In this document: positions 8,167-49,270 of the stretch, piece by piece
How the letters are laid out: every line of letters starts with the position of its first letter
Numbering within the stretch: position 1 is the first letter of the stretch
Virus record (IMG/VR): IMGVR_UViG_3300037313_001570
Coordinates: 1-54,803 of that record
Strand: one strand, 5' to 3'
DNA: 54,803 nt
DNA from: a virus
Position numbers and translations under genes: made by a program
The notes under the pieces: model-generated
The model's database searches: none
What the model was told of the DNA's origin: nothing
The model's input: only the letters and a program-made list of their open reading frames with translations

Positions 8167-9358
8167 AAATCTTCGCGCAATAAACAGCGAGAATCTACAA
8201 TTAAATGGCTGTACTGCTATTATATTGGGCGGTAATAATAAAGGTAAGACAACTCTTACTAAAGCATTAATCGAACGTTTGCGCGGCATTAAACCAGAAC
8301 ATATATTAAAACAAGGAGAAGCAAATGGAATGTATGTAATGGAGCTTACGAATGGGGATAAATTAGAATGGACTGTAAACGGAACGAAAGAAAAATTAAA
8401 ATTAATCACTCCTAATAACGTAACGCATTCTATTACAAAAGAAATTTCTTCTTACTATTTCCCTAAAGGGTTTGATGTTGATAAGTTTCTTAATGAAACT
8501 CCAAGCGAGCAAAGAAAAGCACTTCAACGAATTTCAGGTTTAGACTTCAGCGATGTTGATAAACGTTATAAAGAAGCATATGAAAATCGAACATATGCAA
8601 ACAAGCGTCTGCAAGAAGAAAAGGCAAAGGAAATTCTTTTCGAACCGCATTGGGCAGAAACACTTAATGAAGAAGAAATATTGAATTTAGAAAAAGAAAT
8701 TAATAGTATTGAAGCTCATAATCTTCAATATAAAAACATCCAGGAGAAAGTTGAAGAAAAAAAGTCCAATTGCATTGCAGCAGAAAAATTAATAAGAGAA
8801 TATGAAGAAAAAATTGCCGCAATACAAATTGGGTTATCAGAGACAAAATTGGAAATTAAGAAAGGAGAAGAATGGCTCAACAGAGAAGATAAAAAACCGA
8901 AAGACGAAAAATATAAAAACGATCTAAAAGAAAAGCTCATTGATAAAATCGAAAACGAAGAAGCAATTAAGCGAAAAAAAGAATTAGAAAAAGCAGAACA
9001 AAATGCGATTGTTTGCGAGGAAGAAATACAAACAATATTGCGAGATAAAGACGAAATGATTCGCCTTGCAGATATGCCTGAAGGTTTTGAATTTGATGAT
9101 ATTACAGGAGGAATTAAATACAATGGATTCCCTTTTGATAAGAAAAATCTATCCAGTTCTGCGATATATATAGGGGCGCTTAAGCTCGCAGCAAAAACAC
9201 TCGGCGAAGTTCGTACAATCCATTTTGACGCGAGTTATTTGGACAAAAATAGCTTATCGCAGATTGCGGATTGGGCTGAAAAAAATAACTTGCAATTATT
9301 AATTGAGCGGCCAGATTACGAAGGCGGAGAAATAAGATACGAAATTATTGAAGATTAA
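8138..9358 (+). CDS. SMC/Rad50/SbcC-like coiled-coil ATPase
   Basis: Walker A ILGGNNKGKTTL, a long central E/K-rich coiled coil, and C-terminal IHFDASYLD (Walker B/D-loop-like). Confidence 0.65.
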   Translation: MTKVKSIFVKNLRAINSENLQLNGCTAIILGGNNKGKTTLTKALIERLRGIKPEHILKQGEANGMYVMELTNGDKLEWTVNGTKEKLKLITPNNVTHSITKEISSYYFPKGFDVDKFLNETPSEQRKALQRISGLDFSDVDKRYKEAYENRTYANKRLQEEKAKEILFEPHWAETLNEEEILNLEKEINSIEAHNLQYKNIQEKVEEKKSNCIAAEKLIREYEEKIAAIQIGLSETKLEIKKGEEWLNREDKKPKDEKYKNDLKEKLIDKIENEEAIKRKKELEKAEQNAIVCEEEIQTILRDKDEMIRLADMPEGFEFDDITGGIKYNGFPFDKKNLSSSAIYIGALKLAAKTLGEVRTIHFDASYLDKNSLSQIADWAEKNNLQLLIERPDYEGGEIRYEIIED

Positions 9359-24053: not shown

Positions 24054-24085
24054 TTTGGAGTGTGCGAATATGCGATGTATATTTG
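24054..24085 (+). promoter_or_regulatory. Bacteroidota sigma-A-type promoter (TTTGGAG class)
   Basis: TTTGGAGT at 24054 and TATATTTG at 24078-24085, with an exact 20-nt spacer. Confidence 0.6.
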
Positions 24086-25196: not shown

Positions 25197-25238
25197 AACT
25201 TGCCTCCAATATATTCAAAAAATATTTGGAGGCAAGTT
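25197..25238 (+). terminator. long hairpin whose 3-prime arm is the -33 box of the next promoter
   Basis: AACTTGCCTCCAA (25197-25209) pairs perfectly with TTGGAGGCAAGTT (25226-25238); 13 bp, extendable through ATAT with one bulge. Confidence 0.5.
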
Positions 25239-25256
25239 GTATCGAGCTTATCTTTG
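25225..25256 (+). promoter_or_regulatory. Bacteroidota sigma-A-type promoter (TTTGGAGG class)
   Basis: TTTGGAGG at 25225 and TATCTTTG at 25249-25256, 20-nt spacer. Shares TCGAGCTTATCTTTGGTATA with the promoter at 27629. Confidence 0.6.
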
Positions 25257-25714: not shown

Positions 25715-26113
25715 ATGTCAGGCGCAAAATTAATAATCGAAACTGGCGTTAAGCCGGGAGCAGGTAAGCAAGTTAAGCCAGCCAGCAATAAAAAAATAAC
25801 CTGTGAGGAATACCTTGCAAGGTTGGCGGATCGTGCAGAAGAAGGGGAAGAAGAAGGCTCTGGTAAGATTGTAACCATACTTCGGCTATACCGTGCTGGT
25901 TATACGCGAAGCGAAATTGTAAAGGCAGGTTTTAATCGAAGTACAGTATACAGGCAATGTGGCGAATACGAAAAGTTGCGTAGGGCACCCGCGACCTCCT
26001 ATTATGGATTTGAGCTTTACGAAGCACGTGTGCAGCGTGTTATGAAAAAGAAAGGTCTTACACGGGACAAAGCGATTGAATTTATTACCGAACAAGATAT
26101 CAAAAATGACTAG
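25715..26113 (+). CDS. HTH DNA-binding protein, paralog A (resolvase/Hin-type HTH-like)
   Basis: GKIVTILRLYRAGYTRSEIVKAGFNRSTVYRQ. Confidence 0.65.
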   Translation: MSGAKLIIETGVKPGAGKQVKPASNKKITCEEYLARLADRAEEGEEEGSGKIVTILRLYRAGYTRSEIVKAGFNRSTVYRQCGEYEKLRRAPATSYYGFELYEARVQRVMKKKGLTRDKAIEFITEQDIKND

Positions 26114-26360: not shown

Positions 26361-26446
26361 GACCGCATAGCTCAAGGGTAGAGCGTTGACATAAGTTTGT
26401 AGCTATTTTTAATGCGAAGATATCGGTTCGACCCCGATTGCGGTTA
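26361..26446 (+). tRNA. tRNA-like element or possible pseudo-tRNA (86 nt) lacking a canonical anticodon stem
   Basis: Acceptor stem GACCGCA/TGCGGTT (G1-U72). D arm GCTC-AAGGGTA-GAGC. T arm ATCGG-TTCGACC-CCGAT. Discriminator A, no encoded CCA. The central 36 nt do not form a 5-bp anticodon stem by hand folding. Confidence 0.5.
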
Positions 26447-26476
26447 CTCATTCTAAAAAAATAAAAAACAGAATTT

Positions 26477-27130: not shown

Positions 27131-27316
27131 ATGAAAAAAGTAAATTGGGATAATCCGCCTTCTCATGCATTAATGAATAGAATACTTCTATTTTGGGTAT
27201 TCATTCTAACTGTTATGCTTATCATAACTTATTGTATGCTTAAGGATGATAATTTATTTTCTAATCAAAAAATACAACAACATGGATCTTCACCAGTTAA
27301 ACAAGCAGGAAATTGA
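27131..27316 (+). CDS. small membrane protein (61 aa)
   Basis: ATG at 27131. TM segment ILLFWVFILTVMLIITYCML. Confidence 0.5.
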   Translation: MKKVNWDNPPSHALMNRILLFWVFILTVMLIITYCMLKDDNLFSNQKIQQHGSSPVKQAGN

Positions 27317-27533
27317 TTTATTAATCGAAGGATTAGGCGAATTACCAATCGCCTCAAAGGAGCACAGCCAGAAATTTTTATCTAACATGTTAAAGCATGT
27401 TACAGATAAGACAACAACTCAAGATGATATAGAAAAATTGTGCAAAGAAGACGAAAAGGCATTGAAGAAACGCGAGGAAGATGTTTCTTTACTTAAAGCG
27501 AAATTAATTAACCATCGTCGATCTTTGGCATAA
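27282..27533 (+). CDS. hypothetical coiled-coil protein (83 aa)
   Basis: ATG at 27282 (MDLHQLNKQEIDLL). Confidence 0.5.
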   Translation: MDLHQLNKQEIDLLIEGLGELPIASKEHSQKFLSNMLKHVTDKTTTQDDIEKLCKEDEKALKKREEDVSLLKAKLINHRRSLA

Positions 27534-27542
27534 AAAATGCTA

Positions 27543-27594
27543 TTCCCGGCTCGCATTAAGGCGTATGGTTGAACCTAAACCGGGAACCATAAAA
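27543..27594 (+). ncRNA. G+C-rich pseudoknot-capable element carrying the GAACCTAAACCGGG motif
   Basis: TTCCCGG (27543-27549) pairs with CCGGGAA (27580-27586), and ATGGTT (27565-27570) pairs with AACCAT (27585-27590), in an interleaved arrangement. The motif recurs at 28192-28224. Confidence 0.4.
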
Positions 27595-27628
27595 TGTTCA
27601 TAATTTTGAACAAAAAGTTTTCTAAAAA

Positions 27629-27660
27629 TTTGGAATATATTGATTTCGAGCTTATCTTTG
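27629..27660 (+). promoter_or_regulatory. Bacteroidota sigma-A-type promoter with no ORF downstream (orphan or tandem)
   Basis: TTTGGAAT at 27629 and TATCTTTG at 27653-27660, 20-nt spacer. Confidence 0.55.
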
Positions 27661-27726
27661 GTATAATAAAACTCTGGCGTGTATTATTAAAATGTTCATA
27701 ACTTATTCAAATTTATTAGAAATAGA

Positions 27727-27758
27727 TTTGGAGGCAATTAAAAAAGTTCTTATCTTTA
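27727..27758 (+). promoter_or_regulatory. Bacteroidota sigma-A-type promoter (TTTGGAGG class)
   Basis: TTTGGAGG at 27727 and TATCTTTA at 27751-27758, 20-nt spacer. Confidence 0.55.
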
Positions 27759-27773
27759 ATATATCAAACAAAC

Positions 27774-27822
27774 GCAGGGGCAGCTGACAAGGACTGCTAA
27801 GCATATCCCTCGAAACCCCTGC
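27774..27822 (+). promoter_or_regulatory. structured 5-prime leader hairpin of gene 27857
   Basis: GCAGGGG (27774-27780) pairs with CCCCTGC (27816-27822), enclosing a G+C-rich 35-nt insert between the promoter and the ATG. Confidence 0.45.
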
Positions 27823-27856
27823 AATTTTTATTTATTCATAAATTAAAAATTCACTT

Positions 27857-28060
27857 ATGTCACAAGCTCAAAAAACTCGTAAAGGTCGCATGACTGCGAA
27901 AGAATTCGCCAAGAAAACTTTCAAGGGTAAAAACCTTGGAACCATTGAACAGATTGTTAAACTTGGTATGAAAGGGTTTACACAAAAAGAAATTATCGAC
28001 GCAGGTTATAACAGAAACACAGTGTACCGCCAGTACCGCGAACAGGTAGCCAACGCGTAG
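27857..28060 (+). CDS. HTH DNA-binding protein, paralog B (67 aa)
   Basis: GTIEQIVKLGMKGFTQKEIIDAGYNRNTVYRQ. Confidence 0.65.
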   Translation: MSQAQKTRKGRMTAKEFAKKTFKGKNLGTIEQIVKLGMKGFTQKEIIDAGYNRNTVYRQYREQVANA

Positions 28061-28328
28061 TGATCCCATACCAACAAAGGGCCGAACCTTAAACCTCTGG
28101 GTATGTAGGAAAGGCAAGGCTGGTTAATCCGGTGACGTACTACATAACTGACCGAATAAAGGTAGCAACCGAACAAAGGTTGTTATGTAGGGGCGTGGGT
28201 CGAACCTAAACCGGGTTCATAAAACTACATAGTTCGCAGAAATGTCAGGCATGGCATTCGTTAGGCGTAGCATCAAAAGCAGGCTATGTAGTTTTTAGCT
28301 CTTTTAAATAACCTCATAATCTACCGCT
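28061..28328 (+). ncRNA. candidate structured noncoding or cis-regulatory RNA (268 nt)
   Basis: No ORF. G+C is about 50% by hand count. Alternating TATGTAG (28102, 28184, 28285) and CTACATA (28140, 28225) arms. The last helix is followed by T5 at 28292-28296. Confidence 0.45.
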
Positions 28329-28766
28329 ATGGCAAGACCAAATCGAATTATCGTTACACATGTACAGTCTGTTAAGATTCAAACACTATTAAAAGCGGAT
28401 AACGGCAAAGCACCCGTCCAGGAATTAATTGACACTATTGTTAAAGATGCCGAAGTGGAAGAATGGGTGGCTAAGCGTTTCGCCGATGCATGGCGTTGGA
28501 ACCACAGGAATGATAACGATAATATTGAACCTAAACCTGAAAAAAAGGAGGAGCTTTTCTACACAAGTAGGCCATTACCTGAGATGAAAAAGAAAGGCAC
28601 AACAAGCAACCCGGAAAACGGAACTGGTAAAGTAGCACAAATTATTCAGCTCGCACAGCAAGGCAAGAGTGTACAGGAAATAATTGAAATGGGATTCAAC
28701 AAAAGCACAGTTTACAGGCAGGTTAGCGAATGGCGTAAACGCACTAAAGAACAACAACACGCGTAA
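28329..28766 (+). CDS. HTH DNA-binding protein, paralog C (145 aa)
   Basis: GKVAQIIQLAQQGKSVQEIIEMGFNKSTVYRQ. Confidence 0.65.
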   Translation: MARPNRIIVTHVQSVKIQTLLKADNGKAPVQELIDTIVKDAEVEEWVAKRFADAWRWNHRNDNDNIEPKPEKKEELFYTSRPLPEMKKKGTTSNPENGTGKVAQIIQLAQQGKSVQEIIEMGFNKSTVYRQVSEWRKRTKEQQHA

Positions 28767-28821
28767 AATTGCTTTAATGCTCATGCCTGCAAAATTCTTG
28801 TTCTGGCTAATATGCAGGCAA

Positions 28822-28850
28822 ACCGGATATTCTCTATATCCGGTTTTTTT
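28822..28850 (+). terminator. strong rho-independent terminator
   Basis: ACCGGATAT (28822-28830) pairs with ATATCCGGT (28836-28844), 5-nt loop, T-run to 28850. Preceded by hairpin GCCTGCA...TGCAGGC. Confidence 0.85.
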
Positions 28851-28887
28851 ATTTACATTATTCATCCATCACCAAAATCAAAAATAC

Positions 28888-29139
28888 ATGAACAAGCAAA
28901 CAGAATACCTTATTAAGGTATACCTTCGAAACGTTAATTTTCATTCTACCGCTATCGGCATGGCTATTGGTATTGCTATGGAAAATTGTACTGATGAAAT
29001 GTTTAGACAATTAATAATTTGGCTGAAAAAAGAAATAGATGGTAATGAATTATTAGTTTCGACAATTATTGGCCCGGTATGCACCGATCTTATAAAAAGA
29101 TATTCTTTAAATAAAAATGAACACGCATGCACACACTAA
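28888..29139 (+). CDS. hypothetical protein (83 aa)
   Basis: ATG at 28888, downstream of the terminator. The track start at 28684 runs through the terminator. Confidence 0.5.
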   Translation: MNKQTEYLIKVYLRNVNFHSTAIGMAIGIAMENCTDEMFRQLIIWLKKEIDGNELLVSTIIGPVCTDLIKRYSLNKNEHACTH

Positions 29140-29328: not shown

Positions 29329-29360
29329 TATATTTTTAAATCCATTTGGTCTTTATTTAA

Positions 29361-29392
29361 ATGTTGCTGTATATTTACAGCGACATTTTTTT
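29361..29392 (+). terminator. rho-independent terminator
   Basis: ATGTTGCTGT pairs with ACAGCGACAT (one G-U pair), loop ATATTT, then T6 (29387-29392). Confidence 0.75.
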
Positions 29393-48445: not shown

Positions 48446-49270
48446 ATGAAGACAGAAGCAATAAATTTAATTAATAAGATCAAGCAATTATTTGCAGATA
48501 TGCCGATTCCAGCAGCTCCGGTAGAATCAAACGAGCCTACAAATTCGGTAGTTATGAATACTACTGATGGAGTAGAGGTAGTTGTCGATAAACTCGCTAC
48601 AGGAGGGAAAGCTACGATCGCAGGACAACCAGCTGCCGCTGGAACCTATGTCTTCACAGATGGAAGTTCTATTGTTGTAGACACGACAGGAACAATAACA
48701 ACTTATACTGCTCCTGCTGTACCCGCAACACCACCACCAACCATTCCAGACCCAACTTTAGACGCAAAACAAAATGCTCCCGCTCAGGTTACACAACCAA
48801 ATCCAGCAAAAATGTCCAAACAGTTTAAATTCTCTGACATTAAAAAAACAGAAGAAATTGAAACTATGTTTGCTGCATTTGCAACCGGTACACCAGAAGA
48901 AAGAATCTCCAATTTAGAACTTGTTTGCAAGGCTTTAATGGAATATAATTTTGGATGGGAAATTCGTCAGGCAAAAGAAAATACGGACAAGCAAGCTGCA
49001 ATTTCGATCTATACAAATGAACTGTCTACAGTTCAGGCACAAATGAAATCGCAAAAAGAAACAATCGAAAAACAGCAAGGTATTATCGTACAAATGTTCG
49101 CTCTAATGGAAGAGTTTTCAAAAGAACCAGTTGCAAATCCTCCCGGCGAAACAAAAAAATCATTTAAGTTTAATGAAGTACTAGGCAAGAAAAAAGGAAA
49201 TTCTAGTATTAACAAATACGCCGAAGCTGCTCAAAAAATTAAAGAAGAACAAGAAGCAGCATCAAAATAA
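48446..49270 (+). CDS. scaffold-like or head-decoration-like protein
   Basis: Ala/Thr/Pro-rich N-terminal half and a coiled C-terminal half, directly upstream of the capsid gene. Confidence 0.4.
   Translation: MKTEAINLINKIKQLFADMPIPAAPVESNEPTNSVVMNTTDGVEVVVDKLATGGKATIAGQPAAAGTYVFTDGSSIVVDTTGTITTYTAPAVPATPPPTIPDPTLDAKQNAPAQVTQPNPAKMSKQFKFSDIKKTEEIETMFAAFATGTPEERISNLELVCKALMEYNFGWEIRQAKENTDKQAAISIYTNELSTVQAQMKSQKETIEKQQGIIVQMFALMEEFSKEPVANPPGETKKSFKFNEVLGKKKGNSSINKYAEAAQKIKEEQEAASK

Follow-up and report, generated by a model that had tools for sequence, protein, structure and literature searches.

What does a phage carry in 268 untranslated nucleotides between two small regulatory genes? The locus lies in a tailed-phage genome of about 55 kb, analysed here as one stretch of 54,803 nucleotides (hereafter the window), which has nearly all of its long open reading frames (ORFs) on the + strand and encodes a helicase, a primase-polymerase, a large terminase, and a portal protein. 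The spacer (28061-28328) separates the stop codon (28058-28060) of gene B, encoding a 67-aa helix-turn-helix (HTH) protein with a Lys/Arg-rich N-terminus (27857-28060, +), from the ATG of gene C, encoding a 145-aa protein with a C-terminal homeodomain-like HTH (28329-28766, +), with the genes for SSB (29656) and the small terminase (30141) just downstream. An earlier note on this DNA had called the spacer devoid of ORFs and rich in G+C, which is correct on both counts: no + strand ORF of at least 30 aa occurs between the gene B stop and the gene C ATG, each + frame contains 3-10 stop codons, and the G+C content is 0.444 against 0.339 for the window, only 1.4% of the window's 268-nt windows being as G+C-rich (the hand count of 31/60 for positions 28081-28140 was reproduced exactly). 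The note had also remarked on alternating heptamers, TATGTAG on the + strand at 28102, 28184, and 28285 and CTACATA (the - copies) at 28140 and 28225. This series is real, since 5 of the 11 copies found in 54.8 kb fall in the spacer, within 190 nt, a clustering of five sites never seen in 200,000 random placements. Likewise, the proposed strand-specific structured RNA region is apparent from folding, the + strand being better than its shuffles (z = -2.9) and the - strand no better (z = -1.1). The question is therefore which structure the spacer contains and what it does. We found that its conserved feature is a 92-nt three-way-junction (3WJ) RNA at 28126-28217, not a five-arm switch.

A conserved three-way junction

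The relatives used for comparison were the contigs of 17 gene C homologs (41-62% identity) from a large protein collection. Those with enough upstream DNA have a gap of ~290-650 nt upstream of the C homolog, without any called + strand gene, and the same neighbourhood order (B, gap, C, ..., SSB, small terminase), with gene B homologs of 60-72% identity at the same position. A first alignment of these gaps contained one invariant block, GGCGT(G/T)G(G/T)TCGAA(A/C)C, which corresponds to the 3' half of the 3WJ. In the window, the 5' strand of the closing helix P1, AAUCCGGU (28126-28133), pairs with the 3' strand ACCGGGUU (28210-28217), as indicated by both covariation and the minimum free energy (MFE) fold. 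It is followed by a single junction G (28134) and the 5' base of P2, ACGU (28135-28138), which together carry the 'GACG' box; this base pairs with GCGU (28193-28196) across a variable P2 extension (28139-28192). In the MFE fold, the extension forms a helix between CUACAUAAC (28140-28148) and GUUAUGUAG (28182-28190), the distal part comprising 28150-28181. P3 follows directly as a hairpin of 4 bp and a triloop, GGGU-CGA-ACCU (28197-28207), and the junction AA (28208-28209) leads back into P1, past which lies a conserved 3' tail (28218-28221), CAUA in the window and CUAA in most copies. All these elements are on the + strand, the helix order is P1-P2-P2'-P3-P3'-P1', the junction strands are 1, 0, and 2 nt long, and the MFE structure of the window copy (-33.5 kcal/mol) is identical to the consensus structure.

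Our sample comprises 23 copies from ~12 related uncultured phages, ranging from 43 to 109 nt. Across these copies, P1 has 7-9 bp and always ends in GG, with a partner strand that begins with CC, and is followed by one junction G. P2 starts with ACGY and ends with RCGU, its insert varying from ~5 to ~85 nt in other copies, and P3 comes directly after as GGUU-CGA-AACU, UGGU-CGA-ACCA, or GGGU-CGA-ACCU, followed by the junction AA, the P1 3' strand, and the CUAA tail. At the base of P2, alignment A3 shows the pairs C11-G89 and G12-C88 to be invariant and A10-U90 to persist in 18 of 20 copies; the 3' base of P2 together with P3 (28193-28207) makes up the most conserved 20-mer in all relatives. Standard pairs occupy 96.9% of pair cells in a MAFFT alignment of 21 copies, against 26-41% with slid partners, and 97.4% against 24-39% in a model-based alignment of 23 copies. 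Two-sided changes affect 11 of the 16 pairs, including three of the four in P3, and covariation extends to every one of the eight P1 pairs, with as many as five pair types. In either alignment, four of the five measures had observed values that none of 500 shuffles reached. Folding of single sequences recovered all three helices in 12 of 16 copies, the window copy included, and the covariance model detected copies outside its seed (L011 3826 and L020 1167). The 3WJ structure is well supported, and the covariation of this small RNA is unusually clean. G·U pairs are frequent (14 at the P3 base, 10 at the final P2-base pair) and establish the folded strand as the + strand, namely the mRNA. A pseudoknot between UAG, just 5' of GCGU, and the CUAA tail was rejected, as it would pair in only ~9 of the 23 copies.

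The 3WJ gives the heptamers another meaning than that of five equivalent, partner-swapping arms proposed earlier. Only the pair 28140/28184 belongs to the conserved 3WJ, as the lineage-specific P2 extension (the CTACATAAC/GTTATGTAG pair of the earlier note); 28225/28285 is part of the terminator-like stem discussed below, and 28102 has no conserved partner. The heptamer repetition is therefore specific to this lineage, and the architecture that had been overlooked is that of P1 enclosing P2 and P3 around a conserved junction sequence. The complementary stretches behind the smaller hairpins listed in the note do exist, but GAACC/GGTTC (28202-28218) and TAGCAACC/GGTTGTTA compete with the conserved fold, and inspection of the relatives revealed neither GAACC/GGTTC nor CATACC/GGTATG. 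The latter (28068-28073/28100-28105) is located in the non-conserved linker upstream of P1 (28061-28125, +), which has no covariance-model match. The TATGTAG without a partner (28102) is in this linker too, as is a stretch resembling P3, GGGCCGAACCTTAAACC (28079-28095). In the relatives L007, L011, and L013, a full second 3WJ copy occupies the linker position of the B-C spacer. A decayed duplicate could be the source of the extra heptamer arms, with similarity tests that are non-significant (p = 0.07 and 0.28): the linker resembles the intact element only marginally (p ~0.07), a third, degenerate copy at 28066-28105 was rejected for this reason and because the covariance model did not support it, and the reading of the terminator-like hairpin as a decayed P2 duplicate did not reach significance (p = 0.28).

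Other copies and searches for a known identity

An unfiltered model search of the whole window retrieved exactly two credible copies, the main one (matched over 28126-28225 at 57-60 bits) and a short form (27543-27595, 35-38 bits). The latter, a 'CGC-type' copy at 27543-27586 (+), lies 9 nt past the stop of the ORF 27246-27533, has covariance-model scores of 35.4 and 37.9 bits (E ~1e-8 to 1e-10), and recovers all three helices in its MFE fold, with P3 reduced to 3 bp. The 11-mer common to both copies, GAACCTAAACC, has a third exact occurrence within the gene C coding sequence (28527-28537, +), probably by chance, as three or more matches occurred in 4 of 100 shuffles.

Among the relatives, the 3WJ is found in two settings: in B-C spacers with an adjoining helix, and between cistrons without a terminator. 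The intercistronic copies (L001 2088, L008 443, L009 1552, L007 1257, and two in L017) begin 5-9 nt past a stop codon and end 15-22 nt ahead of the next ATG, upstream of small, mutually unrelated ORFs. The P2 insert sequence GTTATTGTTTGTTTAGGGTATGC is conserved across lineages (L001 2088-2160, L008 443-515, L009 1552-1627, and L015 1651-1727), and the conserved insert of the intercistronic copies suggests an extra function of that arm. Outside this phage group, the exact core was present in one other phage-like contig of a different lineage, L017 (11.5 kb), where we detected no homologs of the HTH paralogs A, B, and C. Its copies are minimal, with 43 nt (8949-8991) and 46 nt (9134-9179), and lie between small membrane-protein ORFs, flanking a 41-aa hydrophobic ORF and preceding a lipoprotein-like one.

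The earlier note had recognised no named RNA family here, and Rfam 15 agrees. At gathering score, the whole window yielded only a tRNA (26361-26446) and nothing at the 3WJ; with E values up to 10, no match over 27300-29000 overlapped the 3WJ and 28050-28335 had none; the minimal L017 copies gave only noise-level matches (E 0.43-5.3), far below gathering score. GenBank phages had no blastn match, and IMG/VR, searched by protein and with three DNA patterns, contained no relatives; its matches to GGACG...GCGTGGTTCRAAAC were low-scoring and without P1, at least some of them resembling tRNA T-arms. Two matches in GTDB genomes were both attributed to chance, as was one of the four core matches in JGI metagenomes (L018, within an integrase ORF). 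A literature search by core sequence string and by keyword found no description of the 3WJ. A tRNA or tRNA-like identity was discarded, ARAGORN and the Rfam tRNA model finding nothing at the spacer, and a T-arm/T-loop reading of GGUUCGAAAC is contradicted by the covariation of columns 94 and 100 (U-A in 13 copies, G-C in 7), which indicates a triloop hairpin instead. The known self-cleaving ribozymes (hammerhead, twister, twister-sister, pistol, hatchet, and HDV-like) had no Rfam match, lax thresholds included; moreover, a hammerhead core is incompatible with junction strands as short as 1, 0, and 2 nt, and the nested pseudoknot of HDV with the helix order. The 3WJ is a new RNA family, absent from Rfam 15.

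The adjoining hairpin and the early genes around it

The last helix of the spacer had been described as terminator-like and 8 bp long. The first part stands, as the stem runs into T5 (28292-28296) and its position is conserved in relatives; the length does not, because AAAACUACAUAG (28221-28232) and CUAUGUAGUUUU (28284-28295) form a 12-bp perfect inverted repeat, 100% complementary, within the hairpin 28221-28296 (+). This hairpin and its equivalents in relatives have the G+C-containing stem and U run of intrinsic terminators but not their short loop of 3-8 nt, the loop measuring ~50 nt in the window and 8-61 nt in relatives; the distance of ~50 nt between the arms is why a consensus terminator scanner omits the window hairpin. 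The B-C spacers of 9 out of 11 lineages checked have a helix of 10 bp or more that begins 1-3 nt past P1'. This adjoining helix is A-rich in its 5' arm and ends U-rich; its position is conserved, and its arm sequences are unrelated between lineages (AAAACUACAUAG, AAUAACAACAC, AAUAACUGCGAAC, AAUGAUAACGC, and others); that of L007 is a textbook terminator with an 8-nt loop. The canonical terminators of the window at 28820-28846 and 29359-29388 have the same style of A-tract and U-tract arms as the hairpin.

Directly past the U run there is a boxA-like box, AGCUCUUUUA (28297-28306, +), with the core GYUCUUU. In all scanned regions upstream of gene C homologs, AG(T/C)TCTTT (28297-28304 in the window) was present. 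The boxA consensus is GYTCTTTAANA (PMC5725501), and the rrn and lambda boxA sequences are UGCUCUUUA and CGCUCUUA, respectively (PMC2724277). The core of the window box, GYTCTTT, equals the first seven positions of that consensus, a 7-nt match to a consensus that may not be that of the host.

The only canonical promoter type in the window is Bacteroidota-type, TTTG-N17-21-TAnnTTTG, and there are only four such promoters on the + strand (24054-24085, 25225-25256, 27629-27660, and 48924-48953), three of them at 24-27.7 kb. Four canonical promoters for a one-strand genome of 54.8 kb imply either long read-through transcription or unrecognised phage-specific promoters. Gene B and the spacer are served by tandem promoters, 27629-27660 (TTTG-N-TAtcTTTG, +) and 27722-27753 (a TTTA variant, +), and the promoter upstream of gene B is conserved in relatives. 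No canonical Bacteroidota-type promoter was detected between B and C, so that polymerases reaching C most likely crossed the hairpin. The box AGTTCTTT was discarded as a general promoter element, this 8-mer being far too common in the window (one mismatch allowed) and not conserved in gene B promoters. A canonical intrinsic terminator follows gene C (28820-28846, +), and strong terminators separate the early region from the SSB and small-terminase genes. Both copies of the 3WJ, two per genome, are in early transcripts upstream of terminator-like hairpins.

Several further features accompany these promoters. Those at 25225 and 27629 have TCGAGCTTATCTTTG in common. The box TAAAATGTTCATAA(T/C)TT occurs twice (27590-27606 and 27688-27704, +), each time ~20-25 nt upstream of a promoter TTTG, and L001, L004, L013, and L021 retain the same AAATGTTCATAACTT box ahead of the B promoter; this box is possibly an operator or UP-like. 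The gene B leader (window 27773-27822, +; also L004, L013, and L021) contains another structured motif, distinct from the 3WJ, with a covarying closing helix of 7-8 bp (GCAGGGG/CCCCUGC, GAUGCAGC/GUUGCAUC, and GCAGGUC/GAUCUGC) around a conserved interior, GACAAGGnCU...AUAnCCCUCGAAA, that has inner compensatory pairs; a U-rich run comes next in the window, and the motif is not in Rfam. A tRNA gene (26361-26447, +; Rfam 44.3 bits) lies inside the early operon and has a 26-nt insertion in the anticodon region. ARAGORN could assign it no anticodon, and it could be intron-bearing or otherwise odd.

Genes B and C belong to a set of three HTH paralogs, A (25715-26113), B (27857-28060), and C (28329-28766), all on the + strand and with G(F/Y)N(K/R)(S/N)TVYRQ in common. 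Sequence and fold searches with B and C returned only non-significant homeodomain-like DNA-binding folds; the gene C model has two three-helix bundles whose best, non-significant fold matches are homeodomains, and the name 'phasin' given to gene C by one source is unsupported. The genes of the window have A/U-rich leaders and no Shine-Dalgarno motif.

Possible roles and comparison with known systems

From the sequence arrangement and by analogy with known phages, we tentatively prefer to regard the 3WJ and the hairpin as a cis-acting module that controls read-through, by antitermination or attenuation, in the early transcript. The spacer would be part of an early mRNA initiated at the promoters upstream of gene B, and the folded 3WJ would act on the transcribing polymerase when the latter meets the adjoining terminator-like hairpin, either unaided, in the manner of HK022 put RNA, or by way of a host or phage factor, as in lambda nut. 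A Nus-type complex on the boxA-like box would possibly help, and the outcome would set the amount of transcription into gene C and the genes beyond. Several observations are consistent with such a module: a conserved 3WJ with a terminator-like helix that abuts P1' and whose lineage-unrelated arms have the style of canonical terminators; nearly all long ORFs on one strand, a scarcity of canonical promoters, and strong terminators that precede the SSB and small-terminase genes; two early copies per genome, upstream of terminator-like hairpins; and the boxA-like core upstream of every gene C homolog scanned. On the other hand, a loop of ~50 nt (8-61 nt in relatives) is atypical of an efficient intrinsic terminator, the boxA match is 7 nt long and relates to a consensus that may not be the host's, and gene C might own an unrecognised promoter at the AGTTCTTT box, in which case the 3WJ would belong to the 3' UTR of B. 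L017 carries the 3WJ without the HTH paralogs A, B, and C, which also makes gene B unlikely to be a dedicated partner and weakens its candidacy as an N-like protein. Finally, the intercistronic copies, which have no adjoining terminator, are no less compatible with a role in translation or processing.

Those copies, located 5-9 nt past a stop and 15-22 nt before an ATG with neither terminator nor promoter between, argue for the 3WJ being a processing or stability element, either a signal for cleavage by a host RNase or a self-cleaving ribozyme of a new type, that would punctuate the polycistronic early mRNA and leave a structured 5' end on the downstream cistron. The mutually unrelated downstream genes agree with this role, and a variable closing helix, a conserved junction, a P2 of free length, and tandem copies are typical of small ribozymes. 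Nevertheless, we consider it rather improbable: no Rfam ribozyme matched, even short slices at lax thresholds, junction strands of 1, 0, and 2 nt leave few unpaired conserved bases for a catalytic core, and the terminator-like helix abutting P1 in the B-C spacers would go unexplained. In six copies, P1' stands at a constant 15-22 nt from the ATG and a CUAAAA-type A/U-rich leader comes next. This spacing could also point to an operator, enhancer, or insulator that acts on translation of the next ORF, in a host whose initiation is not led by Shine-Dalgarno pairing, as suggested by window genes that have A/U-rich leaders only and lack that motif. Placed at the 5' edge of the ribosome-binding region, the 3WJ would bind a repressor or the 30S subunit, or merely keep the A/U-rich initiation region unpaired. 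Yet the main window copy is 111 nt from the gene C ATG, with a long hairpin between, and no credible ORF follows the copy at 27543, so that we hold this role to be quite unlikely.

The model of the earlier note, a ligand- or protein-sensing attenuator with mutually exclusive helices, seems unlikely as well. Binding would stabilise the 3WJ and let the terminator form; otherwise, the 3' arm of P2 (28184-28190) would pair with 28225-28231 as an antiterminator. In the window this alternative duplex reaches -8.1 kcal/mol, a value matched by only 2.3% of shuffled arms (p ~0.02), and the aptamer-like junction is conserved and occurs as tandem copies in some lineages. However, in 7/7 relatives tested the corresponding pairing between these two arms is no better than in controls, P1 and the terminator stem do not overlap, and the associated genes are unrelated small phage ORFs rather than a metabolic set. 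A DNA-level element, whether operators for the flanking HTH paralogs or an origin or a packaging site close to the small-terminase gene, recognised in double-stranded or extruded single-stranded DNA, is highly improbable in spite of its location between HTH genes, with SSB and the small terminase ~2 kb downstream, and of the near-palindrome GTTCGAAAC in the core. P1 is completely different between copies and always pairs, which recognition of a duplex cannot explain, and these unrelated P1 sequences argue that the 3WJ is not a duplex-DNA site; in addition, the other strand would have A·C mismatches in place of the frequent G·U pairs, folding of the - strand is no better than that of its shuffles, and all copies are on the coding strand.

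Little is known about the timing of gene expression in phages of Bacteroidota-type hosts. If the 3WJ does control read-through, it would be a lambda-like early/delayed-early switch put together from unrelated components, in a group of hosts whose promoters and translation signals differ. A bolder proposal, which we regard as doubtful though worth stating, is that the 3WJ may be the founding member of an undescribed functional class of RNA in phages of Shine-Dalgarno-poor Bacteroidota-type hosts: a factor-independent antiterminator, a self-cleaving ribozyme with a minimal form of 43 nt, or a riboswitch that reads a host signal before the delayed-early commitment. The minimal size of 43 nt makes direct synthesis and testing for antitermination, self-cleavage, and ligand binding possible and, even with a modest role, the 3WJ is a new RNA family fit for Rfam and for the annotation of uncultured phages.

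The logic of the 3WJ family resembles that of known leader and antiterminator systems. In lambda, the gene order is cro - nutR - tR1 - cII, and nutR or putR lies between cro and tR1 in lambdoid phages. The B-C region similarly presents a small HTH gene, an RNA signal, a terminator, and a second HTH regulator in an early operon, with a linear box carrying the boxA core GYUCUUU nearby and two sites per genome. In lambda-type nut sites, boxB is bound by the arginine-rich N protein. Here, the structured element is a three-way junction of 43-109 nt instead of the 15-nt boxB hairpin of lambda, lacks a GNRA-like pentaloop, and precedes the boxA-like box, as in rrn operons, whereas in lambda boxA comes before the hairpin; no N-like protein was identified in the window phage and there is no sequence similarity to lambda nutR. 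The put RNA of HK022 binds the zinc domain of the RNA polymerase beta' subunit and suppresses termination in cis, independently of other factors. Like the 3WJ, putL and putR are multi-helix RNAs (~70 nt), two per genome, that are part of nascent early transcripts and lie ahead of the first terminators, and protein-free action of this kind could fit the presence of the 3WJ in L017 without A, B, and C. In contrast, put consists of two stacked stem-loops and the window element of a predicted closed three-way junction, there is no sequence relation between them, and the host of HK022 is enterobacterial. With riboswitches coupled to terminators, the 3WJ shares a conserved, aptamer-like junction of covarying helices, a variable closing P1, a terminator-like helix immediately 3', and occasional tandems, but it has no conserved antiterminator alternative (the mutually exclusive pairing is above chance only in the window), no overlap of P1 with the terminator, and no common metabolic function among the downstream genes. 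The rrn leader (boxB hairpin - boxA - boxC) has the same succession of a hairpin and a GYUCUUU box, AGCUCUUUUA in the window and UGCUCUUUA in rrn, although the window box is in a phage mRNA leader, has one extra U, and is not followed by a recognisable boxC, and the boxA of the host may differ.
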